A DNA stretch of 37,546 nucleotides, taken from IMG/VR virus record IMGVR_UViG_2565956620_000003. One strand, 5' to 3'. The position numbers were made by a program, and so were the translations under genes. This document shows positions 3,144 to 37,546 of this stretch, piece after piece. The notes below the pieces were generated by a model. It ran no database searches, had not been told where the DNA came from, and was given only the letters and a program-made list of their open reading frames with translations. Positions within the stretch are counted from its first letter, which is position 1; each line of letters opens with the position of its first letter. The stretch comes from a virus. Its lineage: Duplodnaviria; Heunggongvirae; Uroviricota; Caudoviricetes.

Positions 3144-3674
3144 TTACTGCACATCCTGCTCAAAAGGAATTATTGAAAAATCCTCAATGTCGCTTTTAAT
3201 GGAAATACCGGGAATATTTTTCACGGCCTCTTTTTCATTCAGGATAGCGTCTTTATTTATTTCCTCTTTTACACGAATAAAGCGCTCAAGCCCCAGACGT
3301 CTCAGTAATTCAATAACATTATCCGCCCCACGGATACTGACTGATGGCGGACGGTTTCGCCACTGCACCTCGCCGGTGGTGAGGTTAGCGAACTTCACCT
3401 TCCCGTTGCCGGTCAGTTCATCACGGTGTGCCTCACACCATGTCTGAATACCGGACTGCAGTTCGGCCATGCGTTTTTTCAGGCTCTCGGTGAGCGGGGC
3501 ATAACGTGCGGTGATATCGCCAATGGCGTCATTCATTTCTGTTTCAGCCCTGACCAGTTCACGTTGTGCGTCACCGAGTAGTCTGATTCCCTCAATGACC
3601 TCTTCACGTGTCCCCGGCACCCAGAGTGCTGCTGCGGCCTTGATACGTTTTGCACCTTTTGTACTTTTTGCCAT
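3144..3674 (-). CDS. gam: Gam host-nuclease inhibitor (DNA-end-binding, Ku-like)
   Basis: 176 aa; near-collinear similarity to Mu Gam as recalled (AKRIK.AAA..VP, ETEMNDAI, WCEA.RDELT..GKVK.ANL.TG.V.WR.RPPSVSIRG, LGL.RFIR.K.EINK.AIL, SIKSDIEDFSIIPFEQ). Confidence 0.9.
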   Translation of the reverse strand: MAKSTKGAKRIKAAAALWVPGTREEVIEGIRLLGDAQRELVRAETEMNDAIGDITARYAPLTESLKKRMAELQSGIQTWCEAHRDELTGNGKVKFANLTTGEVQWRNRPPSVSIRGADNVIELLRRLGLERFIRVKEEINKDAILNEKEAVKNIPGISIKSDIEDFSIIPFEQDVQ

Positions 3675-3701
3675 TTTTTATGATTTCTCCAGTTGTGCTG
3701 A

Positions 3702-3971
3702 TTACCACAAAGATTCCGGCCACACGACGCGACAGCCGTGCAGTTCGAAAACGCCCTGACGGAAATATCCCCTGTGGTCATGTCCGGTATACAGATAACA
3801 GGCCTTTCCCTGCTCAAGCATGCGCATGCAATGCGCACTCCGGGAAACGCGGATGACAGGTTTGTTACCCCTGATGGTGATGCTTTGTACATCCGTGTTC
3901 GTCGCCTTAAGCGCCATAATGGCTGACTGCACTTTGCTGATTTGCTGGTTGATACCTGTGGTGGATTTCAT
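3702..3971 (-). CDS. Hypothetical early protein (89 aa)
   Basis: Starts 3 bp after the stop of the transposition ATPase gene; same strand as the operon. Confidence 0.45.
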   Translation of the reverse strand: MKSTTGINQQISKVQSAIMALKATNTDVQSITIRGNKPVIRVSRSAHCMRMLEQGKACYLYTGHDHRGYFRQGVFELHGCRVVWPESLW

Positions 3972-3973
3972 TA

Positions 3974-5179
3974 TTAAACCCCTTTGACAACGTCAGCGTT
4001 GACCTGTGGAACCCCGATTTCAGCGGCCAGATTCATGGCGGCTATTACCAGGTTACTGACGGCCAGCGGATACAGCAGGCTGACCATATTTTTACGGTGA
4101 CTTCCCGGATTGCTCAGGCGGGCACGTATGGCATCCACTGCACCGGCGTCCATAATGTCCGTCAGCTGTTTACCGGCCCGTTGCAGTTTGAACGTCAGAA
4201 ATTCTTCAAGGTTATTGTCCAGAGGCAGAAGTTCGACCACCTCACAGCGCTGAACGACTTCACGGACTTCCATATTGCGTTCAGACAGTTTTGTCGCCAG
4301 TTCCGGCTGGCCAATCAGCACGATGGACAGCAGTTTTTTGAAACCGGACTCCAGCTCAAAAAAGCGTTTGAGGTGTTTCAGTGTCGGAATGGGCAGACTG
4401 TGGGCCTCCTCAATCACCAGAACGTGGCTGAACCCCGCCTGGCTGCTGTCTTTCAGGACGCGATGCAACTGGCGAAAACGGGCGTCCTGACTGCGTCTGA
4501 TGCTTTCCAGTGGTGCGATGGTACTGATAATGGCTTCGGCAATAGCTGCTGCCTTCAGGGTTTTCCCTTTCACATCGTTGTCTTCCATAGCGATGATGTA
4601 TGGCTCGATAACAATTACCGGCGCATTCTCGCGGTTGATACGTTCAGTCAGGTCGCGGCGCAGCGTGGATTTACCCGCACCGGACTCACCGATGACGGCC
4701 ATAAACCCACCATGACGGGCTGTCTGGTACAGCGCCTCACGCACGTAGCGAATGTCCGGGGTGGTGAACACATCATCAGAACCCTGCATGGCTTCGTCGG
4801 CGAACGGGTCACGGAAAAGACCAAACGCTTTTTTGGTTGCTGGAAATAACACCTGTTTTTTGAGTAACATATTCTCTTCCTCACTGAGGCTCGTTTTATC
4901 TGTGGTACCCGCTGTACGGGGCGTGGCCGCGCCCTGTACAGCATCAAAACTCTTCGTTGTATCAATCCCCTGACTTTCCAGCCAGGACGCAAGACGCCGG
5001 CGCACTTCTCCGGGGCTGGTGCGGGGCCACGCGTTATGATTCACAATCTGGGCCAGCGTGGCCTCAGAAACATCGACAGCTCTCGCCACCACCGCCTGTG
5101 GAATACGGGCCTCTTTCAGTTGCTGCTTCAGTACCAGCATGTTTCCCTCCTCAGTTGCCGTTAACAATGCTGATAACAC
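3974..5179 (-). CDS. Transposition ATPase (MuB/TniB-like AAA+ protein)
   Basis: 401 aa; Walker A GESGAGKST; N-terminal HTH-like segment; lies immediately downstream of, and overlaps, the transposase gene as for Mu B. Confidence 0.85.
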   Translation of the reverse strand: MLSALLTATEEGNMLVLKQQLKEARIPQAVVARAVDVSEATLAQIVNHNAWPRTSPGEVRRRLASWLESQGIDTTKSFDAVQGAATPRTAGTTDKTSLSEEENMLLKKQVLFPATKKAFGLFRDPFADEAMQGSDDVFTTPDIRYVREALYQTARHGGFMAVIGESGAGKSTLRRDLTERINRENAPVIVIEPYIIAMEDNDVKGKTLKAAAIAEAIISTIAPLESIRRSQDARFRQLHRVLKDSSQAGFSHVLVIEEAHSLPIPTLKHLKRFFELESGFKKLLSIVLIGQPELATKLSERNMEVREVVQRCEVVELLPLDNNLEEFLTFKLQRAGKQLTDIMDAGAVDAIRARLSNPGSHRKNMVSLLYPLAVSNLVIAAMNLAAEIGVPQVNADVVKGV

Positions 5180-6920
5180 TGCTGCGGGCCGGTGTGGTCA
5201 GCGTGGCCATGACTTCATCCAGTGCGGCTTCCGGTACGCCGTCCGGGTACTGTGCCGTTAACTGGCGGTAATGTTCCGGCGTCCAGGTAAGGCCGTCGGC
5301 GCTGAACTTATCGCGCAGGGCTTTCGCGGCCTCCACATGAGTCATGGGACGTTGTTCAGTGCGCGGCCCGCGTACGTCAGAGGCCTGACCACGCTTCGGC
5401 ATATAGGCCGGAAGTGTGGTGTCGTCGATATGTTTATACGGGTCAAGCCGCCCGCCGAACGGCAGCGCCTTCGCCTTGCGTGCGGCGGCTGCATCTGCGG
5501 CGTTGTCTGTACCGGTAACCAGCGCTTCGGTTTCTTTTGCCGCCATCTGTGCCGGGGTTTCCGGCAGGGCTTTGTAACTTTCGCCAAATACCGCCGCGCC
5601 TTCAGCAAAGCCAAACTCGTTCTTTCTGACCTCTTCGACCAGGAAGAACGTCTCGTGGCCGTCCTCACCGGTCAGAACCACCTGTGCCACATCGCTGCGC
5701 CATGGGTTACGGGTAATCATCAGTTTTTCACCAACCAGTACGCCCGGTACCGTTGATACGTCAAATTCAGTGCCCCGGAACGAGACACGAAGTTTTGGCG
5801 TGACTTTGCGGAGTTCTGGTGCCGCCACAGCCAGTTCACGACATACCTCAACGGAAGGCGCTTTTTTCAGCTGCTCAGCAGTAATCTTCAGCCAGATATC
5901 CGTGCGGGTTTTACCGTGGCGGCTGTGAACAGCCGTGGCGTTAAAGTGGCTGCGCCATTTCGCGGCCAGCGCGTTGAGTTCTTCCAGACTGTGAACCGGC
6001 CGGAACTTCAGACCCGGCTCCAGCTTGCGTTCGATAATGTCACGCGCCTTTTCCACCTGTCCGGTGGCGCGGGCGTTATGCGGCTTGTGCGCTATCAGGT
6101 CGATGCCCAGTGAGCGGCACATGTTTTTCGTCATACCCGCGGTGTTTGCCGAGCCGGGGTCGAGATAGAGTATTTTCGGCACGCCGTGCAGCACGTCTGC
6201 GCCGCCACGCTCCTGCATGGCGTTGATAAGCACAGAACACAGGTTCTCACCTGATTCCGCGCCCGTCACATACTCAACGTAAATCCAGCCGCTGGCATGG
6301 TCGGTAATCTCGTAACTCCACACGCGGTCACTGGCGATACGGGCAAGGTTAGCGGGCTTGTTCTTGTAGAACTTCGCGCTGTCCATCACCTGCAGCCCTT
6401 TATGTCCATTGCTCAGGTAGTAAAGCGTGCAGAGTGAGGCGTCAATCTGCCAGACATGATTGGGATGCAGACTGGCCACTTCGGTATGTGGTGCAGGGGC
6501 ATCCAGTTGTTCCGGGTGCAGGCCATAGTTACGCAGAGCACGGCTGATGGCATCTTCAGACAACGGGAAAAACTCACTGGTGGTTTCATCTGTTCTGCCT
6601 GCGGTGATAAAGCCGTTAGCCCGCAGGGTTTCCACTGCATCTGCGATGGAATAGAGACGCTTACCGTTCTTGCGGGTGGCCTCACGCAGTGTGGCAGATA
6701 TCAGCGCGGCTTCGTCGCGGGTCAGGGCGCTGCGCCCGGCATCGGCGCGTTTTTTGCGTTTATCAGTCACAGATACCTCCTTCAGCCTGCGCAGCAGAGT
6801 GGCGCGGGACATGCCAAGTTCAGCACAGGCAGCGTCGTATATTGCACCGCGTTTACCATGCCCCGCGTCACGTGCCGCGCGGGCTGTTTCAACCAGTTTT
6901 TCAGTCAGTGCCGGGGTCAT
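5151..6920 (-). CDS. DDE transposase (rve/integrase-core type, BcepMu TnpA-like, not MuA-like)
   Basis: 589 aa; N-terminal HTH (GMSRATLLRRLKEV); integrase-core-like motifs (HPNHVWQIDASL, ILYLDPGSANT); sits between early regulators and the MuB-like ATPase. Confidence 0.85.
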   Translation of the reverse strand: MTPALTEKLVETARAARDAGHGKRGAIYDAACAELGMSRATLLRRLKEVSVTDKRKKRADAGRSALTRDEAALISATLREATRKNGKRLYSIADAVETLRANGFITAGRTDETTSEFFPLSEDAISRALRNYGLHPEQLDAPAPHTEVASLHPNHVWQIDASLCTLYYLSNGHKGLQVMDSAKFYKNKPANLARIASDRVWSYEITDHASGWIYVEYVTGAESGENLCSVLINAMQERGGADVLHGVPKILYLDPGSANTAGMTKNMCRSLGIDLIAHKPHNARATGQVEKARDIIERKLEPGLKFRPVHSLEELNALAAKWRSHFNATAVHSRHGKTRTDIWLKITAEQLKKAPSVEVCRELAVAAPELRKVTPKLRVSFRGTEFDVSTVPGVLVGEKLMITRNPWRSDVAQVVLTGEDGHETFFLVEEVRKNEFGFAEGAAVFGESYKALPETPAQMAAKETEALVTGTDNAADAAAARKAKALPFGGRLDPYKHIDDTTLPAYMPKRGQASDVRGPRTEQRPMTHVEAAKALRDKFSADGLTWTPEHYRQLTAQYPDGVPEAALDEVMATLTTPARSSVISIVNGN

Positions 6921-6935
6921 AGCTTGTCTTCCCTG

Positions 6936-7253
6936 TTATCCGATTCTGGCGGCAATTTTTCTGGCGAGGTCGCACAGTGTTTCGCCATCGCAGGTTTTCA
7001 CCACGGTATTTACCGGTTGCGGTGCAACTACCGGGCGTAATGCTGACTGATTCTGCAGACGTCTTATCTGCTGCATCAGCATCACCTCCATCGTCAGTAC
7101 AAACGGGTGCGTCTCCTGTGCGGGTACGCAGATTTCACCGGAAGGGGTCACCACGCGGAAACCCTGCACCATCTCCGGCAGCAGATTACACAGTGCGTGC
7201 CCCAGTGCCTCCGGGCTGTCCATCAGGGTATTTTGTGTGTTATTCGTATTCAT
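6936..7253 (-). CDS. Hypothetical early protein (105 aa)
   Basis: ORF in operon; start shares a base with the upstream stop at 7253. Confidence 0.5.
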   Translation of the reverse strand: MNTNNTQNTLMDSPEALGHALCNLLPEMVQGFRVVTPSGEICVPAQETHPFVLTMEVMLMQQIRRLQNQSALRPVVAPQPVNTVVKTCDGETLCDLARKIAARIG

Positions 7254-8173
7254 TACTGCATATCCTCCGGTCGGTTGATTTCAGGTTCCGGTTCGGTCAG
7301 CCAGGCGGGGGCATCGTTACCCGATGGAGCGGCCTCAAGGTCAAACGTCTCACGTAATGCATGAACACTGCGTTCAATCTGGCAGACCAGACCGGCCATG
7401 AAATCTCTGGGGGTATCGATCATGTTTTTGGTGCAGTATTCACACAGGGTCTCAAAAACACTGGACAGCCGGACGGCGATAGCCGATTCGGCCTCAACCG
7501 CTAATGCCGTCACTTCCGCCCGCAATTTTTTCAGTTCTTCGTCTGGCGGCGGAGGTTGCAGGCGCGATTTCTTCTCCAGTTTTGTGGCCAGTTCGTTGAT
7601 TTTTTCGTCCTTTCCGGCAAGCACCTGTTGCTGAGCTGCGTTGGTTTCGCGCGCTTCACGCAGGGCGGCCTTCAGTTCGCGGCTGGTCATGCGATCAATA
7701 TCATCAAGCGTTGCACCGGCGACGGTTCCACCATCAGCTAATGCGTCGAGTTCTTCGTCATCCAGAACCATCAGTTCATATAACTTGGTTTTTCCCAAAA
7801 CGCTCAGCGCTGAGCGTTTTGGCTGTTCATCTCCATTGCCGAGAAATTTCACGCTGGCCTGCATCATGCGACGAGCTACCTGTGGTGCTAATCCGAGGTC
7901 GTTTTCCAGAATATTTGTGAAATCACCATGCGGTTCATTTTCTTTTAAGATGATCAGCCGCTTACCCGCTTCCAACATAGATTCAGCACTCTGCGCCATA
8001 TAAAAACGTGCTTCGTGAACGATGCGTTCACGTTCATAAGGCAGTCCATCACCAAACTGCTGCATGATCTCCATGCGATGCTGTGTCATGGCATTCAGGC
8101 TGACGTTGAGATCATCCGACAGCGGTACATCGGCGTTCAGTTCAGTGTTAATCGGTGATTTGGTACGTCCCAT
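7253..8173 (-). CDS. Hypothetical early protein with coiled-coil C-terminal half
   Basis: 306 aa; the charged C-terminal half looks coiled-coil; a protein of this kind is common in Mu-like early regions (possibly a DUF3102-type protein, family assignment from memory only). Confidence 0.55.
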   Translation of the reverse strand: MGRTKSPINTELNADVPLSDDLNVSLNAMTQHRMEIMQQFGDGLPYERERIVHEARFYMAQSAESMLEAGKRLIILKENEPHGDFTNILENDLGLAPQVARRMMQASVKFLGNGDEQPKRSALSVLGKTKLYELMVLDDEELDALADGGTVAGATLDDIDRMTSRELKAALREARETNAAQQQVLAGKDEKINELATKLEKKSRLQPPPPDEELKKLRAEVTALAVEAESAIAVRLSSVFETLCEYCTKNMIDTPRDFMAGLVCQIERSVHALRETFDLEAAPSGNDAPAWLTEPEPEINRPEDMQ

Positions 8174-8183
8174 TGATTACTCC

Positions 8184-8498
8184 TTACAAACGACTACCTG
8201 AAATGACACGTTGGTTAATTTCGTTAATACGATCCTGTGCACGTGCCATCTCGTTACTGTGGGCCATGGCGATCTGCAGTAACTGGATGCCCGGTGCAAA
8301 ACGTCCGTTCTCCAGTTTCAGAGCCAGCCCTTCTTCAATGAGGGTGTTGAGTGCCCGGTTGATGTTTGCCGGTGACTCGTGCAGTGCTGTCGCCAGTTCA
8401 CCGTTAGAAATACCGTTCAGGGCATGACCGCGCAGCGCTTTGAGTACCCGGAGGATGCGACTGCCGGAGCTTGAAACATTCGTCTTACTCATCTGCAT
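8184..8498 (-). CDS. Winged-helix DNA-binding protein, hypothetical regulator
   Basis: 104 aa; segment ISNGELATALHESPANINRALNTLIEEGL looks like a winged HTH. Confidence 0.5.
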   Translation of the reverse strand: MQMSKTNVSSSGSRILRVLKALRGHALNGISNGELATALHESPANINRALNTLIEEGLALKLENGRFAPGIQLLQIAMAHSNEMARAQDRINEINQRVISGSRL

Positions 8499-8544
8499 AC
8501 CTCTTTTGCGATATGTGATAACCTTTTACAAAGACTCAAAATAT

Positions 8545-8733
8545 TTAGGCCGCCTGAGCTGTTGATTTCAGTCCCAACTTCACGGCGATTTCATGGGATT
8601 TACCGTAACGGGCTTTGGTCTGCCCGTTGAGAACGCGGTATACCTCATTGCGGTTGTAGCCGTTTTCTTCTGCCCAGCGGGTGAAAGTGATCCCGCGCTG
8701 GCGGAAGAGAGCTTTGACTTGTTCTGCAGTCAT
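8545..8733 (-). CDS. Ner-like (Cro-like) early transcriptional regulator
   Basis: 62 aa; spacing pattern V.A....RG.T......E.GY........L.G.....G..IA..LG matches the Mu Ner / Nlp family; first gene of the leftward early operon, divergent from the repressor. Confidence 0.7.
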   Translation of the reverse strand: MTAEQVKALFRQRGITFTRWAEENGYNRNEVYRVLNGQTKARYGKSHEIAVKLGLKSTAQAA

Positions 8734-8826
8734 CGTTGTCTCCTTTGTTGATGCAATGATGTTTGCCTTATATGTGTTAGATTATTGCTCATAATTATGA
8801 GCATATCAAGATAGAGATTCACTTTT
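8734..8826. promoter_or_regulatory. Divergent early/repressor control region with operator-like palindromes
   Basis: Perfect 18-bp palindrome TGCTCATAATTATGAGCA at 8786-8803; the half-site TTATGAGCA recurs at 8825-8833, overlapping the repressor start codon; AT-rich spacer between divergent genes. Confidence 0.6.
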
Positions 8827-9183
8827 ATGAGCAAAGATATAGGAGAGCGCGTTATTTCTGTGAGGAAGAAAGCAGGGTTGAACCAGAGAGAATTTGCAGC
8901 TCGTTTAGGTATTTCTAATGGTGGTATCAGTCAGATTGAAAATGGAAAGGCGATGCCTGGAGGGGAGTTTCTGTTAAAGATGCATCAAGAGTTTAATGTT
9001 GATGTAAATTGGTTGCTCACTGGAATGAGCACAGATGGTATGACTAGAAACCAGAATCAAATTTCCCCAGAAAAACAAAAACTAATAGATACTTTTGACG
9101 ACATGACACCAGACCAACAACGCTCATTTCTTGAGATTGGGCGATTCTATACTCAGCCAAAACCAGGAAAAATCGCAGGCTGA
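8827..9183 (+). CDS. XRE-family HTH repressor (prophage maintenance repressor candidate)
   Basis: 118 aa; classic Cro/C1-type HTH (LNQREFAARLGISNGGISQIENGK); divergent from the Ner-like gene. Confidence 0.8.
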   Translation: MSKDIGERVISVRKKAGLNQREFAARLGISNGGISQIENGKAMPGGEFLLKMHQEFNVDVNWLLTGMSTDGMTRNQNQISPEKQKLIDTFDDMTPDQQRSFLEIGRFYTQPKPGKIAG

Positions 9184-9269
9184 TACTGACCCGGACACAA
9201 AGGACAGGTGGTTGATCTGGATGCTTTCAGAAAACATCGCCAGTGACATAGTGGAAGTTGTTTGGTTTA

Positions 9270-14614: not shown

Positions 14615-16206
14615 CAAAATCATCCGGAGTGATTTTAAACGCCGCTGGCGGCGGCCCCGAAGGGATGAGTCCCATGGACGGGAGGAATAACCTTGCTCCC
14701 GTTTTGCCTGATACCTCGGCGCTGGATGCCCCTCCCGTTCTGTTGCCTTACCAGCAGCGCTGGGTGGCAGACACCTCTCCGCTTAAGGTGATAGAAAAGA
14801 GCCGTCGTACCGGTATTACATGGGCTGAGGCATCCGATAACGTACTGACCGCCGCCTCTTCTGCGCCAGCAGGCGGGATGAATGTGTATTACATCGCTTA
14901 TAACCAGGACATGACCGTCGAATACATTCAGGCGTGTGCGATGTGGGCACGGGCATTCAACTATGCGGCCAGTGAAATTGAAGAAGGATTCTGGGAAGAG
15001 GACGACGACGACAAACACATCAAGACTTACACCATCAAATTTCCTGACTCCGGCTTTCGTATTGTTGCGCTCTCCAGCCGCCCGTCTAACCTGCGTGGCC
15101 GTCAGGGTATTATTGTTATCGACGAAGCGGCGTTCCATGAGCAACTGGACGAACTGCTGAAAGCGGCGCTGGCGATGCTTATCTGGGGGGGAAAGGTACG
15201 CGTTATCTCCACCCATGACGGTGACGACAATCCGTTCAATACGCTTATCGGGGATATCCGTGCCGGACGTCAGGGAGGCAGCATACATCGCATCACTTTC
15301 CGGGAAGCCGTATCTGAGGGGCTGTTCCGGCGCGTCTGTCTGCGCACCGGGAAGGAATGGTCGGAGGCATCCGAGCAGGCCTGGATGGCATCGGTGTACA
15401 AATTCTACGGTGCCGGCGCATCCGAAGAGCTTGACTGTATTCCGGCCAACGGTGGCGGTGCCTGGCTGTCCCGTGCCCTGATAGAGTCCCGCATGTCCGC
15501 TGATACGCCGGTATTGCGTCTGACCTGCAAGGAAGGTTATGAACTGCTGTCTGATGAGGTTCGCTTCCGCGAGACGCAGGACTGGCTTGATGAGTATCTG
15601 AAACCATTGCTGGAGGCACTCCCCACTGATGCCCGCTCTTTCCTGGGGCGCGACTTTGGCCGTAGCGGTGATTTGTCGGTGGACTATCCCCTGCTGCAGG
15701 AGAAGAACCTGGTACGACGCGTGCCATTCGTACTGGAGCTGCGTAACGTGCCGTTCAGACAGCAGGAGCAAATCACCTGGTATCTGATGGATGGCCTGCC
15801 CGGTCTGCTGGGTGCAGCGTTTGATGCCCGTGGTAATGGTGCCTATCTGGCTGAATACGCCATGCAGCGCTACGGCTCCGGCCGGGTTCAGCAGGTGATG
15901 CCAACCGAAGGCTGGTACCGGGAGCATATGCCTCCGGTCAAAGCTGCACTGGAAGACGGCAACCTGGTGGACTTACCAAAGGATGAAGACACACTGGATG
16001 ACCTGCGGGCCGTTCAGGTGGTGAACGGTGTCCCCCGCGTACCGGAGCAACGCTCAAAAGCAAAGGCTGACGGTGGTAAACGCCACGGGGATTCAGCCAT
16101 CGCACTGGCGCTGGCGTATTTCGCCAGCCGTGAAATTAACAAAGGGCCGGTGAAGGCAAGCTCACGCCGTCGTCGTCAGGCGGCCCGTATGCTGGAGGGA
16201 TTCTGA
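14611..16206 (+). CDS. Terminase large subunit (Mu gp28-like)
   Basis: 531 aa; ATPase and nuclease-type acidic motifs (GIIVIDEAAF, VISTHDGDDNPF); position upstream of the portal. Confidence 0.8.
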   Translation: MTKSSGVILNAAGGGPEGMSPMDGRNNLAPVLPDTSALDAPPVLLPYQQRWVADTSPLKVIEKSRRTGITWAEASDNVLTAASSAPAGGMNVYYIAYNQDMTVEYIQACAMWARAFNYAASEIEEGFWEEDDDDKHIKTYTIKFPDSGFRIVALSSRPSNLRGRQGIIVIDEAAFHEQLDELLKAALAMLIWGGKVRVISTHDGDDNPFNTLIGDIRAGRQGGSIHRITFREAVSEGLFRRVCLRTGKEWSEASEQAWMASVYKFYGAGASEELDCIPANGGGAWLSRALIESRMSADTPVLRLTCKEGYELLSDEVRFRETQDWLDEYLKPLLEALPTDARSFLGRDFGRSGDLSVDYPLLQEKNLVRRVPFVLELRNVPFRQQEQITWYLMDGLPGLLGAAFDARGNGAYLAEYAMQRYGSGRVQQVMPTEGWYREHMPPVKAALEDGNLVDLPKDEDTLDDLRAVQVVNGVPRVPEQRSKAKADGGKRHGDSAIALALAYFASREINKGPVKASSRRRRQAARMLEGF

Positions 16207-17702
16207 TGGCGAGGGGTATCTGGGTTTCACCCGATGAATTTGTTGCTTTTTCTGAGCCTCAGAAATCACTGACCGCGCAGATTGCCTCCCGCAGCCGCGC
16301 GATCGACTTTTACGGACTGGGCATGTATCTGCCCAATCCTGATCCCATTCTCAAGGCTCAGGGACGGGATATCCGTATCTACCGCGAACTGCGCACCGAC
16401 CCGCTGGTCGGGGGCTGTATCCGCAGACGTAAAGCAGCGCTCAAATCGCTGGAGCGTGGACTGGAGCGTGGTCACGCCTCTGCCCGGGTCTTCCGTTTCA
16501 TCCGCGACATGCTCGACGATCTGGATCTGTCCCGCATCATCGGTGAAATGAGCGATGCCGTGCTCTACGGGTATCAGCCCTGTGAAATCATGTGGGGCCG
16601 TTCGGTCAGGTCGTGGGCGGTGACGGATATTGTCGGCAAACCGCCTGAGTGGTTTCAGTTTGATACGGACAACTGCCTGCGCTTTCGGGCGCGTGATGCG
16701 GGTGTGGAGGGTGAGCTGCTGTCACCGTCAAAATTCGTGGTGCCGGCACAGGATGCCTCGTATGACAATCCTTACGGTTTCCCGGACCTGTCCATGTGCT
16801 TCTGGCCGGTCGCCTTCAAGAAAGGCGGGATGAAATTCTGGCTCCGCTTTGCCGAAAAGTTTGGCTCCCCGTGGGTGATCGGTAAGCACCCGAGGGGCGC
16901 AAATGATGCAGAGATTGAAAAACTGCTGGACTCCATGGAGCAGATGGTGGAGGACGCGGTGGCCGCCATCCCCGATGACAGCAGTATTGAGCTCAGGGCA
17001 GCGGATGGCAAGGCAGACAGCAGCGAGGTATTTCGCGAGCTGATCACACTGTCACGCAGTGAGATCTCCATTGCATTACTCGGTCAGAATCAGACCACGG
17101 AAGCGAACAGTAACAAGGCCTCTGCACAGGCCGGGCTGGAGGTAACGGCTGATATCCGCGATGCGGATGCGGACATCATTCAGGCGGCAGTGAATCAGGT
17201 CATCAGAACGGTGGTCACCCTGAACTTCGGCGATGTGCCGTGTCCGGTCTGGGCCATGTGGGAACAGGAGGCCATTGATGACACCCGTGCCACCCGCGAC
17301 GAAAAACTCACCCGGGCGGGTCTGCGTCTGACCCCGCAGTACTTCAAGCGTGAGTACCAACTGCAGGACGGCGATATTGACGAGACACCACCGTCGGAAC
17401 GCCAGAATAACATGCTGCCGCTGTCATTTGCCGAGGCGATTGATGCTGATATTCAGGCTCAGCAGCAGCTTGACGACGCGCTGGACATTCTGATGAACGG
17501 AGGCGCGTTAAATGGCACGCTGGAACCCGTCCTGGCACCTCTGTTCAGGCGGGTCGAAAACGGGGTTAACCCGTCTGAGCTGCTGGGCGAACTGGCGGAG
17601 CTCTACCCTCAGATGAACACGGACGATCTGCAGGAGCGGCTGGCCCGCATTCTCTTTGTGGCAAATATCCGGGGACGTCTGCATGAGCGTGACAACGGCT
17701 GA
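16206..17702 (+). CDS. Portal protein (Mu gp29-like)
   Basis: 498 aa; position between terminase and the head morphogenesis gene; start overlaps the terminase stop. Confidence 0.8.
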   Translation: MARGIWVSPDEFVAFSEPQKSLTAQIASRSRAIDFYGLGMYLPNPDPILKAQGRDIRIYRELRTDPLVGGCIRRRKAALKSLERGLERGHASARVFRFIRDMLDDLDLSRIIGEMSDAVLYGYQPCEIMWGRSVRSWAVTDIVGKPPEWFQFDTDNCLRFRARDAGVEGELLSPSKFVVPAQDASYDNPYGFPDLSMCFWPVAFKKGGMKFWLRFAEKFGSPWVIGKHPRGANDAEIEKLLDSMEQMVEDAVAAIPDDSSIELRAADGKADSSEVFRELITLSRSEISIALLGQNQTTEANSNKASAQAGLEVTADIRDADADIIQAAVNQVIRTVVTLNFGDVPCPVWAMWEQEAIDDTRATRDEKLTRAGLRLTPQYFKREYQLQDGDIDETPPSERQNNMLPLSFAEAIDADIQAQQQLDDALDILMNGGALNGTLEPVLAPLFRRVENGVNPSELLGELAELYPQMNTDDLQERLARILFVANIRGRLHERDNG

Positions 17703-32865: not shown

Positions 32866-33436
32866 GCCATTACAACTCCCGCCACCGCTTGAGGGTGATA
32901 TCAGTCTCAGGACGCTGGGAAGACTGGCAGGACGGCTGGATAACATCGACCTGAGCGTACTGATGGTCTTTCTCGTCGATATCGTCGACAGTTCCGCGCT
33001 GCCATGGCTGGGCGAGCAGTTCTCACTGTCTGGCGATGGCTGGGAGCTGGCGGAATCGGACGATGTTCGCCGCATGCTTATAAAAGCAGCCATCGAACTG
33101 CACCGGTATAAAGGGACGCCGTGGTCAATCCGGGAAGTTATCCGCCGTTTTGGCTTTGGTGAAGTGGATCTGATTGAAGGCACAGGTCGTCTCAGTTACG
33201 ACGGCAATCGCAGCTATAACGGACTGTTTGTTCATGGAGATGCAGCCGCCTGGGCAGTTTATCGCGTTATTCTGAAACAGCCCATTACTAACGATCAGGC
33301 CGCGATGCTGCGTCAGACGCTGGCTGCATTTGCACCGGCCCGCTGCCATCTGGCCAGCCTGGAGTATCAGTCTGTGGCCATTCGCTATAACAATACCGCC
33401 ATCCATGATGGCAGTTATAACCACGGGAGCAGTTGA
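32858..33436 (+). CDS. Tail protein I-like (baseplate, fibre attachment)
   Basis: 192 aa; P2 gpI position, directly upstream of the fibre gene. Confidence 0.7.
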   Translation: MTEPLQLPPPLEGDISLRTLGRLAGRLDNIDLSVLMVFLVDIVDSSALPWLGEQFSLSGDGWELAESDDVRRMLIKAAIELHRYKGTPWSIREVIRRFGFGEVDLIEGTGRLSYDGNRSYNGLFVHGDAAAWAVYRVILKQPITNDQAAMLRQTLAAFAPARCHLASLEYQSVAIRYNNTAIHDGSYNHGSS

Positions 33437-34770
33437 TTATGGGAAACCTGAATGAAACAGAAAAGTGGGAAGAAAATATCTATCAACTGGAGACATCAGA
33501 TCCGGTTCTGGGTGGTGCAGACGGGATATCAAATCGAGCCCCCCGGCAACTGGCAAACAGGACGAAATGGCTGAAGAAGAAAACGGAGGAAGCCGCACAG
33601 TCACTGGCTGAACACGTACGTTCCCGTAACCACCCGGACGCGACACTGACAGCTAAGGGGTTCACCCAACTGAGCAGTGCCACCAACAGCACCTCTGAAA
33701 CGCTGGCCGCCACACCAAAAGCGGTCAAGGCTGCATACGACCTGGCAGCCGGCAAGGCGCCTGCCAGCCACACTCACCCGTGGAGTCAGATAACGGGAGT
33801 GCCTGCGGCTTCACTGACGGCAAAAGGCACCGTACAACTGAGCAGCGCCACGGACAGTCAATCAGAAACTGAGGCTGCCACGCCGAAGGCGGTCAAGGCT
33901 GCATACGACCTTGCAGCCGGCAAGGCGCCCGTCAGCCACACTCACCCGTGGAGTCAGATAACGGGAGTGCCTGCTGCCTCGCTGACGGCAAAAGGCACCG
34001 TACAATTGAGCAGTGCCATCAACAGCACGTCTGAAATACTGGCCGCCACACCGAAAGCGGTCAAGGCTGCATACGATCTGGCAAACGGAAAACAACCGGC
34101 AGATGCCACGCTCACTGCTCTGGCAGGACTTGCCACTGCAGCAGATCGGTTGCCTTATTTTACCGGAGCAGACCGCGCAGAGCTGGCAACCCTTACAGCT
34201 ATTGGTCGCGCTATTATCGCTAAGGGCAGTATAAAAGATGTCCTCAATTACCTTGGTTTAGGAGAAGGCTCGGCGCTACCCGTTGGTGTGCCTGTTCCGT
34301 GGCCCACCGCCACACCGCCAGCAGGCTGGTTAAAGTGCGACGGGCGCGCCTTTACAAAAGAACAATATCCTGTTCTGGCCAGAGTCTACCCGACCCTCCG
34401 TCTTCCCGATTTACGCGGTGAGTTTATCCGTGGATGGGACGACGGGCGCAAAGTTGATACAGGACGTAAGTTGCTGTCCGCACAAGGGGCAACGCTGTTA
34501 AGAACAGCAATGCTGGATTATTATAACCAGGACACTACGGGAACCTCGGGGATAGTCGGCATGGGATTCAACAATGAAGATTCCATTACAGACCTTCGTG
34601 AGGGCAGCTTTAAAATGCCGGACGGGACAACATTCAGCGATCCTGTCGTGGCAATGTCAGACAATGGTATGCAGGCTACTATTCTGACCTCTATCAGAAG
34701 CGGGTATGCGAAGGGTATCACTGTCAGACCCCGTAGCATTGCACTTAATTACATTGTGAGGGCAGTTTAA
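33433..34770 (+). CDS. Tail fibre protein: constant N-terminal part plus the currently expressed variable C-terminal cassette 1
   Basis: 445 aa; internal 56-aa tandem repeats; its C-terminal about 170 aa begin with the sequence GEGSALPVGVPVPWPTATPPAGWL that is also found at the start of two minus-strand cassettes. Confidence 0.85.
   Translation: MIMGNLNETEKWEENIYQLETSDPVLGGADGISNRAPRQLANRTKWLKKKTEEAAQSLAEHVRSRNHPDATLTAKGFTQLSSATNSTSETLAATPKAVKAAYDLAAGKAPASHTHPWSQITGVPAASLTAKGTVQLSSATDSQSETEAATPKAVKAAYDLAAGKAPVSHTHPWSQITGVPAASLTAKGTVQLSSAINSTSEILAATPKAVKAAYDLANGKQPADATLTALAGLATAADRLPYFTGADRAELATLTAIGRAIIAKGSIKDVLNYLGLGEGSALPVGVPVPWPTATPPAGWLKCDGRAFTKEQYPVLARVYPTLRLPDLRGEFIRGWDDGRKVDTGRKLLSAQGATLLRTAMLDYYNQDTTGTSGIVGMGFNNEDSITDLREGSFKMPDGTTFSDPVVAMSDNGMQATILTSIRSGYAKGITVRPRSIALNYIVRAV
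33646..34100 (+). repeat. About 2.7 tandem copies of a 168-bp (56-aa) tail-fibre repeat
   Basis: Units starting CTGAC at 33646, 33814 and 33982; protein unit LTAKG..QLSSA..S.SE..AATPKAVKAAYDLA.GKAP.SHTHPWSQITGVPAAS. Confidence 0.75.
34246..34271 (+). other. Candidate recombination crossover site A (gix/hix-like), inside the fibre gene
   Basis: TTACCTTGGTTTAGGAGAAGG; its reverse complement aligns with sites B and C around an AAACC-AA core. Confidence 0.5.
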
Positions 34771-35384
34771 TGAGTAACACTGCAGTTCTGGATGAAAACG
34801 GTATCGCCACTGTAGCGGGCGATATCACTGTATATCACTATGACGAGGAAACCCGGGAATACACCTCATCCTCTGTGGAGTATCTCGCCCTTGGGGTGGG
34901 TACTCCGGCACATTCGTGCGCCGATGCACCGCCGGAAGCAATTTCGGGTTACGTGGTTTGCCGGACTGCCACGCTGAACGGGTGGGAGCATGTGCCTGAT
35001 CACCGCGGCGAGACGGTATACAGCACGGAGAACGGTAACCCCGTTCTGATTACCCAACCGGGTGATTACCCGGCGGACACCACCACAAAACAGCCAGCCA
35101 CGCCATGGGATACCTGGAACGGTGAGGCGTGGGTAACCGATACTGAACGGCAGCGAGCCGCAGAACTGGAGGTTGCCAGACAGCAACGCCAGCAACGGGT
35201 GAAACAGGCGATGGCGTCCGTCGATCTTATCAACCTCAAACTGCGTGCTGGTCGCAGTCTGAAACCAGAAGAAACGGCAAAACTGAACGCCGTGCTGGAT
35301 TATATCGACGAGCTGAACGCACTGGATATCAGCAAGGCACCTGAAATCAGCTGGCCGGAAGCGCCACTGGCGCTTGCCGGCTGA
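34770..35384 (+). CDS. Tail fibre assembly protein (Mu U / Tfa-like)
   Basis: 204 aa; start overlaps the fibre stop (TAATG); located inside the invertible segment. Confidence 0.7.
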   Translation: MSNTAVLDENGIATVAGDITVYHYDEETREYTSSSVEYLALGVGTPAHSCADAPPEAISGYVVCRTATLNGWEHVPDHRGETVYSTENGNPVLITQPGDYPADTTTKQPATPWDTWNGEAWVTDTERQRAAELEVARQQRQQRVKQAMASVDLINLKLRAGRSLKPEETAKLNAVLDYIDELNALDISKAPEISWPEAPLALAG

Positions 35385-35390
35385 ACGGTA

Positions 35391-35852
35391 TCACGCCGCC
35401 CTCACGATATAGTTAAATGCGATATTGCGGGGGCGAGCTGATACATAAGCCCACCAGTCATATCTTTGTGCACCTTTAGAGGATGCATCAAATATCCACT
35501 TTTTGCCATTTAAGACCCCCAGTTGATTAGAGGTTAAAGCGTCACCAAATCCGTATTGTGTAGAGCCGAGCGAACTGATATCTCCGGTATCATTATCATC
35601 AAAACCGGATACGATAGTCCCTTCCTGAAATGAAAGTAGCGCACGCCCGGTATCAACCTTGCGACCACCGTCCCATCCACGGATAAACTCACCGCGCAAA
35701 TCGGGAAGACGGAGGGTCGGGTAGACTCTGACCAGAACAGGATATTGTTCTTTGGTGAACGTAGCTCCGTTGCACTGTAACCAGCCTGCTGGCGGTGTGG
35801 CGGTGGGCCATGGAACCGGTACACCAACAGGCAATGCAGAGCCTTCCCCCAA
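35391..35852 (-). CDS. Silent alternative tail-fibre C-terminal cassette 2 (no start codon of its own)
   Basis: Begins at the crossover-like site with TTG (Leu in the fused reading frame) and LGEGSALPVGVPVPWPTATPPAGWLQCNG, about 90% identical at DNA level to the start of cassette 1; ends with the shared motif RPRNIAFNYIVRAA. Confidence 0.7.
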   Translation of the reverse strand: MGEGSALPVGVPVPWPTATPPAGWLQCNGATFTKEQYPVLVRVYPTLRLPDLRGEFIRGWDGGRKVDTGRALLSFQEGTIVSGFDDNDTGDISSLGSTQYGFGDALTSNQLGVLNGKKWIFDASSKGAQRYDWWAYVSARPRNIAFNYIVRAA

Positions 35853-35863
35853 ACCAACGTTTC
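35838..35863 (-). other. Candidate recombination crossover site B
   Basis: Plus-strand sequence CCTTCCCCCAAACCAACGTTTCTATG at the 5' end of cassette 2. Confidence 0.5.
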
Positions 35864-36291
35864 TATGCCGCCCTTACGATGTAATTAAACGCAATGTTAC
35901 GGGGACGAATGGTCACATAATTAACCCCATCGCCTCGCGAAGGACCTGCAAATGAAAAACGGGAGAATCCAGGTTGGTTGTCAACGATTTGGTCATAGTT
36001 ATTGATTGAATGACCAGACCCAATGTCAAAATTACCTGCGTAATGAGAAAAACTTGTACCATCCTGCCGTGAAAGCAGATCGCGCCCTGTATCCACTTTT
36101 CGCCCGTCGTCCCATCCACGGATAAACTCACCGCGTAAATCGGGAAGACGGAGGGTCGGGTAGACTCTGGCCAGAACAGGATATTGTTCTTTTGTAAAGG
36201 CGCGCCCGTCGCACTTTAACCAGCCTGCTGGCGGTGTGGCAGTGGGCCACGGAACAGGTACACCAACGGGCAGCGCCGAGCCTTCCCCCAA
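35863..36291 (-). CDS. Silent alternative tail-fibre C-terminal cassette 3 (no start codon of its own)
   Basis: Begins with TTG at the crossover-like site; first ~200 bp about 97% identical (inverted) to 34262-34460 of the fibre gene; ends with RPRNIAFNYIVRAA; an in-frame TGA lies just upstream of the site on the minus strand. Confidence 0.7.
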   Translation of the reverse strand: MGEGSALPVGVPVPWPTATPPAGWLKCDGRAFTKEQYPVLARVYPTLRLPDLRGEFIRGWDDGRKVDTGRDLLSRQDGTSFSHYAGNFDIGSGHSINNYDQIVDNQPGFSRFSFAGPSRGDGVNYVTIRPRNIAFNYIVRAA

Positions 36292-36308
36292 ACCAACGTT
36301 TATCTCTC
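36283..36308 (-). other. Candidate recombination crossover site C
   Basis: Plus-strand sequence CCTTCCCCCAAACCAACGTTTATCTC at the 5' end of cassette 3, about 55 bp upstream of the invertase gene. Confidence 0.5.
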
Positions 36309-36362
36309 AAATCCTCCCCACATTATCTCAGTACTTTAACCACTCAAAAGGGAGTATTTTTA

Positions 36363-36935
36363 ATGCTGATTGGCTACATACGTGTGTCAACAAATGACCA
36401 AAACACAGATTTGCAACGCAATGCATTAATGTGCGCAGGATGTGAACAGATTTTTGAGGACAAAATGAGCGGAACCAAGTCGGAACGACCAGGCCTGAAA
36501 CGCGCTTTAAAGTGCCTTAAAAGAGGGGATACATTGGTGGTCTGGAAGCTGGATCGGTTGGGTAGAAGAATGAAACACCTCATTGCTCTCACAGAAGAGC
36601 TACGCGCAAAAGGTGTCAATTTTCGCAGTCTGACGGATTCAATCGATACCAGCACTCCGATGGGAAGGTTCTTTTTTCATATGATGGGTGCACTGGCAGA
36701 AATGGAGCGTGAACTGATAGTTGAGCGCACGCTGGCTGGACTGGCTGCTGCGCGAGCACAAGGAAGAGTTGGAGGACGTCGCCCGAAACTGACGAAGGAG
36801 CAGCATGAGCAGATCGCAAGATTGCTCCAGAAAGGGTATGACAGAAAGCGGCTGGCAATTATCTATGATATTGGACTGTCAACGATCTACCGCTATCACC
36901 CTGTTGGGACTGTCATAACGCAACCTGAAATGTAA
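36363..36935 (+). CDS. Serine DNA invertase (Gin/Hin/Cin/Pin family)
   Basis: 190 aa from ATG 36363; N-terminus MLIGYIRVSTNDQNTDLQ with the catalytic serine in RVST; C-terminal HTH; ribosome-binding site AAGGGAG upstream. The track ORF start at 36234 is an unsupported upstream extension. Confidence 0.9.
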   Translation: MLIGYIRVSTNDQNTDLQRNALMCAGCEQIFEDKMSGTKSERPGLKRALKCLKRGDTLVVWKLDRLGRRMKHLIALTEELRAKGVNFRSLTDSIDTSTPMGRFFFHMMGALAEMERELIVERTLAGLAAARAQGRVGGRRPKLTKEQHEQIARLLQKGYDRKRLAIIYDIGLSTIYRYHPVGTVITQPEM

Positions 36936-36967
36936 TTCTTTTTCAAATAATGAAACGCCGCGTGGAT

Positions 36968-37013
36968 GCCATTTATCGCACAAGATAGAGTGCATTTATC
37001 GCGCGGCGCATCA
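36968..37013 (+). other. Prophage right end with two direct transposase-binding-like repeats
   Basis: CATTTATCGC at 36970-36979 and 36994-37003; terminal sequence GCATTTATCGCGCGGCGCATCA resembles the Mu right end as recalled and ends in CA at 37013. Confidence 0.5.
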
Positions 37014-37546
37014 CCACCGGGATTGGCATTCTTTATGTCAAAGAAGCCTTGTTGCAGGAGATGCCGCCGTGGGAAGGGGGCGGTTCTATGATCGCCACCG
37101 TCAGCCTGAGTGAAGGCACTACCTGGACCAAAGCACCATGGCGGTTTGAAGCCGGTACACCCAATACCGGGGGCATCATTGGTCTTGGCGCGGCGCTGGA
37201 GTATGTGTCGGCGCTGGGGCTTAATAACATAGCCGAGTATGAACAGAATCTGATGCACTACGCGCTATCACAGCTGGAATCTGTACCGGATCTCACTCTC
37301 TATGGCCCGCAGAACAGGCTTGGCGTTATTGCTTTTAATCTCGGTAAACACCACGCCTATGATGTTGGCAGTTTTCTCGATAACTACGGCATTGCTGTGC
37401 GTACCGGACATCACTGCGCAATGCCATTGATGGCCTATTACAACGTTCCTGCTATGTGTCGGGCGTCGCTGGCCATGTATAACACCCATGAAGAAGTGGA
37501 TCGTCTGGTGACCGGCCTGCAACGTATTCACCGTTTGCTGGGATAA
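37014..37546 (+). pseudogene. sufS: 3' fragment of host cysteine desulfurase gene sufS (about codons 230 to 406), cut off from its 5' part by the prophage
   Basis: Translation from 37016 reads [31 protein letters not shown] ... [50 protein letters not shown], matching the C-terminal part of E. coli SufS as I recall it; reading frame is lost upstream of 37014. Confidence 0.85.

Follow-up and report, generated by a model that had tools for sequence, protein, structure and literature searches.

A three-site tail-fibre inversion system with a single assembly gene at the right end of a Mu-like prophage

Introduction

The subject of this report is a tail-fibre locus in IMG/VR virus record IMGVR_UViG_2565956620_000003 (Duplodnaviria; Heunggongvirae; Uroviricota; Caudoviricetes), a stretch of 37,546 nucleotides (nt) referred to here as the window, in which a fibre gene, two silent tip cassettes, one tail-fibre assembly gene (tfa) and a serine DNA invertase gene stand side by side near the right end of a Mu-like prophage. 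Among the closest described systems, the G/Gin switch of phage Mu shares with the window a crossover point inside the fibre open reading frame (ORF) and an invertase gene immediately downstream at the right end of the phage. However, Mu has two sites, two states and an assembly gene for each variable part (S-U / U'-S'), whereas the window has three sites, four states and one tfa; and the fibre tips of Mu are not of the collar type, whereas those of the window are.

The Min system of p15B and the systems of P1-like phage-plasmids resemble the window in using a Din-family invertase and more than two sites to place alternative 3' ends onto one fibre gene, but they differ from its three-site arrangement in having more sites and many more permutations, and in residing in a P1-type plasmid prophage. 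The Min system of p15B, which was known earlier than the shufflon described next, has six crossover sites. In enteropathogenic Escherichia coli (EPEC) E2348/69, a P2-like prophage carries a shufflon with three partially homologous inverted repeats, where overlapping inversions of ~2200 and ~1800 bp give four variants, validated by polymerase chain reaction, that provide one tail-fibre protein with three C-termini (Goldberg et al. 2014, PMC4272514). Compared by description only, this shufflon follows the same three-site, four-variant logic as the window, where the predicted inversion lengths are 2042 and 1603 bp, but it is part of a P2-like and not of a Mu-like prophage.

The DNA of the locus itself has been encountered before. 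Window positions 33433-36935 are 100% identical to genomes of E. coli sequence type 131 (ST131), including that of strain EC958, in which the corresponding prophage is named Phi2. Alternative PacBio contigs of Phi2 have been described that differ by inversion of a 2067-bp segment bounded by the sites called A and C below, listed in Table 3 of the same article as the 26-bp crossover sites Phi2_5prime and Phi2_3prime, and the Phi2 fibre has been assigned the domains Phage_fiber_2 and Collar (Forde et al. 2014, PMC4134206). The A x C inversion is hence an observed event in this very DNA. The accessible portion of that article lists two sites and does not describe an internal site, four states or a single assembly gene; its account of prophage switches is a general one, in which the two arms mirror each other and a matching gene lies downstream, whereas the window has one tfa (PMC4134206). 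The two copies also differ in position, that of the window being inserted in sufS and EC958 Phi2 lying next to aroA.

The type of switch, the outer-site inversion of this prophage and the three-site logic in another E. coli prophage are thus already known. What the present analysis adds is that recombination also uses the internal site, B, and that each of the four states is common, that the one-chaperone design recurs in other phages, that a C-terminal motif shared by the tips is, as judged from sequence comparison, an element of the collar framework, and that the Tfa subfamily encoded here appears not to be insert-specific. The starting point was an initial annotation of the window, made from the sequence alone, which had singled out the silent cassettes, their common C-terminal motif and the solitary assembly gene.

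Results

Crossover sites, invertase and tip cassettes

We interpret the region, which lies at the right end of a transposable Mu-like prophage, as a small shufflon, a multiple-inversion system with three sites and four states. In the proposed mechanism, a Gin-like invertase would recombine site A with site B or C, and after an A x C event also B with C, with exchange at the TT core, and each event would provide the constant shaft with one of three minimal tip cassettes, fused in frame, all of which would be functional receptor-binding tips. That the locus has this switch architecture and that its cassettes are functional we regard as practically certain.

From left to right, between 33.4 and 36.9 kb of the window, the order is fibre gene (+), tfa (+), c2 (-), c3 (-) and invertase gene (+). 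The tail-fibre ORF (33433/33439..34770, +; 443/445 amino acids, aa) contains Phage_fiber_2 in three repeats and, at its C-terminus, the Pfam domain Collar. Its constant part, Sc (33439..34253, +; Pfam Phage_fiber_2 x3, E = 5.4e-56), ends at the first T of the crossover core, where the currently expressed variable tip, c1 (34254..34770, +; Pfam Collar, 6.9e-15), begins. The silent tip cassettes c2 (35391..35856, -; ORF 35391..35852, 153 aa; without ATG or GTG) and c3 (35863..36295, -; ORF 35863..36291, 142 aa) likewise carry Pfam Collar. The whole of invertible segment 2 consists of c3, which ends directly at site B, whereas the invertible segment with c1 and c2 also carries tfa (34770..35384, +), the start of which overlaps the c1 stop codon (TAATG) and the stop of which lies 6 nt from the end of c2.

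All three crossover sites are 26 bp long and have the form 12-TT-12. Site A (34241..34266, +; TCCTCAATTACC TT GGTTTAGGAGAA) lies inside the fibre ORF at ..LNYLGLGEG.., the internal site B (35844..35869, -; GGCATAGAAACG TT GGTTTGGGGGAA) separates the two silent cassettes, and site C (36283..36308, -; GAGAGATAAACG TT GGTTTGGGGGAA) aligns with gixR of Mu, which it matches in its distance from the invertase start. The sites stand at the head of 229-nt repeats, which are 94% complementary between A and C and 85% between A and B. The serine invertase (36363..36935, +; 190 aa; Pfam Resolvase, 8.2e-51, and HTH_7) belongs to the Gin/Cin/Pin/Hin/Min family and shares 77% identity with Mu Gin across 181 aa. 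In Gin-family invertase genes the Fis-dependent recombinational enhancer sits inside the 5' part, and the 5' coding region of the window gene is ~80% identical to gin. A footprint of recombination at the core is seen in a relative of the prophage (L107; L numbers denote loci in public sequence records), in which the right half-sites of A and B have been reciprocally exchanged.

In natural isolates the array occurs in four permutations

Since A is inverted relative to B and C, four arrangements are predicted. Recombinants were built in silico by cutting between the two core Ts, and fusion at this point kept the reading frame in each case, the fibres being 443, 426 and 415 aa long when counted from the ATG at 33439. 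State 0 is the arrangement present in the window, with Sc joined to c1 and tfa on the + strand. State 1 (A x B) joins Sc to c2 and leaves tfa antisense; state 2 (A x C) joins Sc to c3, followed by c2 on the + strand, again with tfa antisense. State 3 also joins Sc to c3, followed in this case by the unfused c1 tail and tfa on the + strand, with c2 on the - strand, and can be reached by A x C followed by B x C or by A x B followed by A x C. The initial annotation had stated that A x B or A x C would turn tfa onto the strand opposite the fibre gene; this is correct for a single inversion, but it overlooked state 3, in which c3 is fused and has a co-oriented tfa downstream. Only c2 is convergent with tfa in every state, the two being on the same segment.

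The predicted products exist in nature. In a collection of 15 billion proteins the fusion proteins occur verbatim on at least 1000 contigs for Sc+c1, at least 1000 for Sc+c2 and 998 for Sc+c3. At the DNA level, the predicted 2.3-kb core of state 1 was found as an exact match in three public assemblies (L007, L008 and L010) and that of state 3 in three others (L002, L004 and L006), while the full core of state 2 was matched at 99.83% in L005 and 99.96% in L003. In the last of these (GCA_005671255.1, ~6900-9248) an IS66-family element replaces the invertase side while the copy is in state 2, in which it is probably locked. The locus thus combines what defines a Gin-type switch, namely an adjacent serine invertase, inverted 26-bp sites with an identical 2-bp core and in-frame fusions found in nature, with the more than two sites and more than two permutations of a multiple-inversion system.

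State frequencies were estimated with split diagnostic queries in 5,426 complete E. coli genomes. The junctions Sc~c1, Sc~c2 and Sc~c3 were found in 237, 135 and 138 genomes, respectively, and the arrangement common to states 0 and 3 in 322, which gives ~237, 135, 53 and 85 complete genomes for states 0, 1, 2 and 3. States with tfa co-oriented with the fibre gene therefore number 322 against 188 for the inverted states 1 and 2, the latter amounting to ~37% of the sequenced copies. A consistency check gave 203 where 327 were expected, which showed that ~124 of the 510 genomes are without adjacent c3. An earlier estimate of 90 and 48 genomes for states 2 and 3 had assumed that all genomes carry three cassettes and gave way to the ~53 and 85 of the direct query; an impression that state 3 far outnumbers state 2 was also rejected, as the locus listing behind it merged places sharing proteins regardless of orientation.

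A two-site form of the locus is present in Escherichia phage 503046 (L016; CP025887.1, 3075-4715), where c3 is absent and the outer site keeps the left half of C. Loss of the DNA between B and C, which are direct repeats, would be expected to give this form; alternatively, it could represent a state that preceded the gain of c3.

Silent cassettes are expressed as fusions and conserved

The only potential start of c2 and c3 is the TTG leucine codon of the ..G-L-G-E-G.. stretch, 3 nt 3' of the central TT. The initial annotation had concluded that these start-less cassettes are silent and can be expressed only as fusions, which the exact Sc+c2 and Sc+c3 proteins bear out. It had also noted an in-frame stop just upstream of c3; the stop is there, but it is no peculiarity of c3, as both cassettes have one a few codons upstream.

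Tips of the c2 type are 60-97% identical in E. coli, Salmonella, Enterobacter, Cedecea and Xenorhabdus. Between the window, its relative L106, the P1-like L105 and the P2-like L108, all of which are single-Tfa shufflons, the ratio of nonsynonymous to synonymous substitution rates (dN/dS) of c2-type tips is 0.14-0.23 at dS values of 0.27-0.85.

The tips share a collar framework

The three cassettes have a common design: behind the crossover site come a collar N-part and a C-terminal strand, both conserved, which enclose a variable insert, and the strand is followed by the stop codon. Accordingly, c1 is made up of the collar N-part, an insert of ~110 aa, RPRSIALNYIVRAV and the stop, whereas c2 and c3, both ending in RPRNIAFNYIVRAA, have shorter inserts of ~55-65 aa. 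Pfam Collar is recognized in all three tips with E values of 7e-15 to 6.5e-16.

The initial annotation had described the tail end RPR(N/S)IA(F/L)NYIVRA as shared by the cassettes. It is indeed present in all three, but it is not special to them: the form RPRN(I/V)AFxYI(V/I)RA is invariant or nearly so in the lambdoid phage HK106, the P2-like phage EtG and a P2-like Yersinia phage, the P1-like 813R1 and Klebsiella phage Kp4845-2, and likewise in an alignment of 44 collar-type tips (41 database homologues and the three window cassettes). In phmmer searches of the Protein Data Bank (PDB) the tips match the tip of T4 gp37 (PDB code 2XGF) and a short tail fibre (PDB code 9CUY). The structure prediction proposed in the initial annotation for the C-terminal domains was performed with AlphaFold2 for the c2 monomer (mean predicted local distance difference test score 64.6), and it is confident in the N-terminal collar part and the last strand but poor in the insert; the best Foldseek matches of the model are 2XGF (E = 2.5e-6) and the T4 gp12 entries 5IV5 and 1OCY. 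In T4, the collar has been assigned to residues 342-397 of gp12 and 814-860 of gp37, according to a review of this phage. On these comparisons, the tips are best described as being of the T4 gp37/gp12-like collar type, and the motif as a C-terminal element of the framework rather than a cassette-specific signal. The likeness to T4 extends to the Collar domain and to the sequence and Foldseek matches; in contrast, T4 employs gp57A and gp38 and not a Tfa of the Caudo_TAP family, and its inserts are unrelated to those of the window, which are much shorter.

From conservation and the fold matches we infer a collar framework made of the conserved N-part plus the C-terminal strand, with the variable 55-110 aa as an excursion from it bearing the receptor-binding surface. 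The two conserved blocks could then act as homology arms flanking the insert, which would explain why the cassettes are minimal, end at the stop codon and come without tfa. Outside phages, inversion in a shufflon has been reported to act on a PilV pilin that carries a phage tail collar domain (Milman et al. 2023, PMC9881135). Collar-type tips thus also serve as swappable adhesin tips in another context, for which no Caudo_TAP chaperone is described.

A different arrangement is seen in Photorhabdus kayaii (L087, 6311-8534), where a P2-like tail module beside glmS/glmU encodes, in this order, a collar-type fibre, a second, free-standing collar protein (166 aa) that starts at an ATG of its own, and a single Tfa, and no invertase was found nearby. 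A collar tip can apparently also be a protein in its own right.

One assembly gene, of a subfamily that varies with the framework and hardly with the insert

The tfa product (204 aa; Pfam Caudo_TAP, 5.6e-27) scores 94.9 bits against the Tfa family PF02413, for which the cut-off is 22.1, and an identical protein is annotated elsewhere with the two domains Caudo_TAP_N and Caudo_TAP; with its length of ~200 aa and a start at the fibre stop, it is a regular member of the Caudo_TAP family. In a six-frame translation of the whole window, the Tfa hidden Markov model (HMM) has its sole match at 34770-35369, and no PHROG family was matched by the alternative-frame ORFs in the segment. The view of the initial annotation that there is only one assembly gene is therefore upheld, as is its remark that the layout departs from S-U / U'-S' of Mu: with one Tfa HMM match and no assembly gene of their own for c2 and c3, the mirrored organization is missing here.

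Throughout its length, the window Tfa is 32-62% identical to Tfas that follow other collar tips. In the simple collar-type phages examined, a Tfa of ~200 aa comes directly after the tip (HK106, EtG, the Yersinia P2-like phage and Kp4845-2), and the same holds for the tip in a silent cassette of the P1-like 813R1. Tips of the c2 type are directly followed by a Tfa, with overlapping stop and start codons, in the Mu-like prophage L097 and in an Enterobacter P2-like prophage (L101), a layout which indicates that c2-type tips are normally accompanied by a chaperone.

Comparison of the Tfa N-domains points to the framework as the partner. Relative to the window Tfa, the N-domain is 57-62% identical in six of eight Tfas and 51% and 33% identical in the other two; for Tfas that follow c2-type tips the value is 59-62%, and it is at the same level after unrelated tips. 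Across 47 tip/Tfa pairs, drawn from 80 loci of GTDB genomes and from phage examples, the identity of the Tfa N-domain correlates with that of the collar framework (Spearman rho 0.42) and hardly with that of the insert (0.08). Some pairs have Tfa N-domains 98-99% identical beside unrelated inserts (23% identity), and conversely inserts of the same type (61-87%) occur beside Tfa N-domains that are only 43-49% identical. This suggests that the Tfa subfamily recognizes the conserved collar framework and not the insert, and that one Tfa could serve three tips. In agreement with a generic collar Tfa, alternative cassettes that are not of the collar type bring their own, different Tfa (Kp4845-2 and L097).

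Candidate signals for transcription of an inverted tfa

A candidate extended -10 element, TGAGATAAT (36322..36330, -), is located between the invertase gene and site C and points from the invertase side into the cassette array; if active, it would read towards tfa and reach it in exactly states 1 and 2. Across phage types, the intergenic region between invertase and array has weak -10-like matches in several cases, and these do not discriminate. In the 90 nt upstream of tfa, comparison of shufflon with non-shufflon phages gave no mobile promoter, and what they share there is confined to the constraint of coding for the C-terminal motif.

A GC-rich hairpin is predicted on both strands where the convergent tfa and c2 meet, at the 3' end of tfa (35347..35384). 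A 66-nt fold of it has -30.8 kcal/mol (z -3.4) on the + strand and -30.4 kcal/mol on the - strand, with no clear U tract, and the hairpin may act as a two-way transcription stop.

Arrays with one chaperone and many collar tips recur

The design is not confined to the window. The P1-like plasmid prophage L105, which we take to be of the p15B type, has seven sites, seven collar tips and one Tfa, and the P2-like prophages L108 and L109 have five sites, five tips and one Tfa, representing two permutations of one array. Further single-Tfa arrays are found in the close relatives L106 and L107 and in fragmented assemblies of an Escherichia species (L022, L023 and L039). Similar arrays are carried by 215 plasmids, mostly of ~95 kb and non-mobilizable like that of the L105 query; among the matches listed, all 25 plasmid records have a single assembly-protein annotation, in 23 of them alongside phage tail or tail fiber entries. 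The combination of one chaperone with three to seven collar tips is thus a recurrent design in P1-, P2- and Mu-like phages, and the window locus is a small member of a widespread class.

Host element and further features of the fibre gene

Up to position 37013 the window is one Mu-like prophage of the Bcepmuvirus type, in which Pfam identifies Mor (132-521, -), a MuB-like ATPase (3974-5179, -), an rve transposase (5151-6920, -) and a Mu-type portal protein (16206-17702, +). The right end of the prophage, ...GCGCATCA, is at 37013, and beyond the junction 37013/37014 the 3' part of sufS occupies 37014-37546; the window includes no left flank. The identical copy in EC958 adjoins aroA, and other flanks are present in L004, L106 and L107, which implies that the phage has transposed or integrated independently many times. 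Together, the DDE transposase, the MuB-like ATPase, Mor, the Mu-type portal, the right end and the varied insertion sites identify a transposable phage, a group whose ends have the form TG..CA.

A classified relative is phage PhiKM (L103, PQ738613.1; Bcepmuvirus), whose identity is 99.5% across the first 953 query bases, which cover the constant fibre part. In its 'partial genome' (4007-5460) the fibre gene is cut off at the invertible segment and joined to the Mor end of the phage, apparently because the inversion repeats broke the assembly.

The shaft portion of Sc contains three tandem repeats of 168 nt (33644-34147, +) that correspond to Phage_fiber_2 shaft units; compared with the first repeat, the second and third are 83% and 65% identical. 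With 530-543 aa, relatives of this fibre in the databases are longer than the 443 aa of the window, suggesting that shaft length, in terms of repeat number, is polymorphic among them.

In the RefSeq record of EC958 (L001, NZ_HG941718.1; locus 3205-4338, corresponding to window 33433-34770), the intact 443-aa fibre ORF is split into a pseudogene described as 'partial, missing N- and C-terminus' and a 160-aa 'phage tail protein', and c3 is marked as a pseudogene, too. These pseudogene calls are annotation artefacts of the repeats and of the start-less cassettes.

Discussion

The arrangement found here raises the question of how three tips are served by one tfa that is turned around with part of the array. 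The initial annotation had offered two possible answers, that the silent fibres do without a dedicated chaperone or that tfa has a promoter of its own, to which the comparisons above add a Tfa subfamily that appears indifferent to the insert. We propose that one generic Tfa would serve every collar-type tip by following the framework rather than the insert, so that a single tfa would be enough for all of them. In states 0 and 3, tfa would share a transcript with the fibre gene. For states 1 and 2, either transcription would have to reach it from the opposite direction, starting on the invertase side or inside c1, or the gene would not be needed. Action of Tfa on all three tips is deduced from sequence relationships, and on this basis we consider a generic, shared chaperone probable. 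For the statement as a whole, comprising the shufflon, functional collar tips and one generic Tfa supplied in all states by some route, our confidence is only a little better than even.

Several points weigh against this proposal. The genome counts are dominated by clonal ST131 and are silent on virion function, and the co-variation statistics ignore phylogenetic non-independence. Structural work on the TFA of Mu assigns binding of the distal fibre to its variable N-domain and trimerisation to its conserved C-domain, which would predict insert specificity, the opposite of what is suggested here. The role of the motif as the strand that closes the collar is read from conservation and fold matches, beside a poor model of the c2 insert. 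On the side of supply, a sigma-70 two-hexamer scan of 33000-37546 returned 0 sites against 3.6 expected, though such a scan is blind to activator-dependent late promoters and to extended -10 promoters, and as a promoter for the inverted tfa TGAGATAAT is hypothetical, being identified by sequence match. Furthermore, 22 of the surveyed loci with complete collar-type fibres have no Tfa-like gene downstream, and given such loci Tfa may not be obligatory for the collar fold.

These Tfa-less loci, in one of which (L076) the gene after the fibre encodes a tail sheath protein, lead to the explanation that c2 and c3, and perhaps all collar tips, fold and trimerise without Tfa, so that the orientation of tfa is irrelevant and the gene either helps without being essential or is required just for the c1 insert, which is larger. 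The length of that insert, about twice that in c2 and c3, and the occurrence of collar domains on PilV pilins, outside the phage context, fit this explanation as well. However, c2-type tips are directly followed by an overlapping tfa in L097 and L101, the tips of HK106, EtG, the Yersinia P2-like phage, 813R1 and Kp4845-2 are likewise followed by one, the type of Tfa does not track the insert, and the loci without Tfa may be defective prophages or tailocins. We consider a Tfa-independent fold of the tips unlikely.

It is also conceivable that Tfa is required and made only when co-oriented with the late operon, in which case states 1 and 2, with 37% of the copies, would yield fibre-defective virions, c2 would never be productive in the window phage, and the layout would be a tolerated by-product of cassette capture. 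The lack of a detected promoter for the inverted tfa, the somewhat higher number of co-oriented copies and the minimal cassettes ending at the stop codon, as expected from capture by recombination between two conserved blocks, are all compatible with such dead states. On the other hand, c2-type tips are under purifying selection in precisely the shufflons that have a single Tfa, and the version with five to seven cassettes persists in P1- and P2-like phages and in the 215 plasmids, which would be hard to maintain if about half of the states were dead. That the inverted states are unproductive is, in our estimation, quite unlikely.

Returning to a generic Tfa supplied in every state, one specific form of this proposal would make the layout a designed two-way transcription unit, in which an invertase-side promoter at TGAGATAAT supplies tfa in the inverted permutations, the hairpin stops both convergent transcripts and the collar framework with its RPRNIAFNYIVRA strand serves as a universal docking platform. 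This form is quite unlikely too, and we put it forward tentatively. If it were true, the chaperone would be supplied in any orientation and any insert could be swapped without a matching chaperone.

Supply of the chaperone in trans by other resident prophages is very improbable. Candidates exist in EC958, where Phi1 and Phi4 have collar-type fibres and a downstream 'minor tail fibre' gene (Forde et al. 2014, PMC4134206), and a Tfa that appears generic could act on foreign tips, but the late genes of other prophages are silent unless these are induced too, and a phage that inserts by transposition at many sites and in many hosts cannot count on any given prophage being present. Finally, the option, raised by the initial annotation, that c2 and c3 are decayed, no longer functional former cassettes has in its favour the missing start codons and linked tfa, but it is refuted in practice by two intact frames, abundant exact fusions, activity of all sites, and low dN/dS and conservation of c2-type tips across genera and across Mu-, P1- and P2-like contexts.

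How the chaperone is supplied would not overturn current understanding of such switches. For genome analysis, the three-site architecture means that assemblies may legitimately differ in four ways at this locus and that automatic annotation fragments or mislabels the fibre gene. For the biology of temperate phages, programmed tip switching sets host range, including that of phages resident in the pandemic ST131 lineage. If one Tfa indeed folds all collar tips, the collar framework together with a single chaperone would be a natural plug-and-play scaffold, in which engineers of phages and tailocins could exchange the insert of 55-110 aa alone, without a cognate chaperone.

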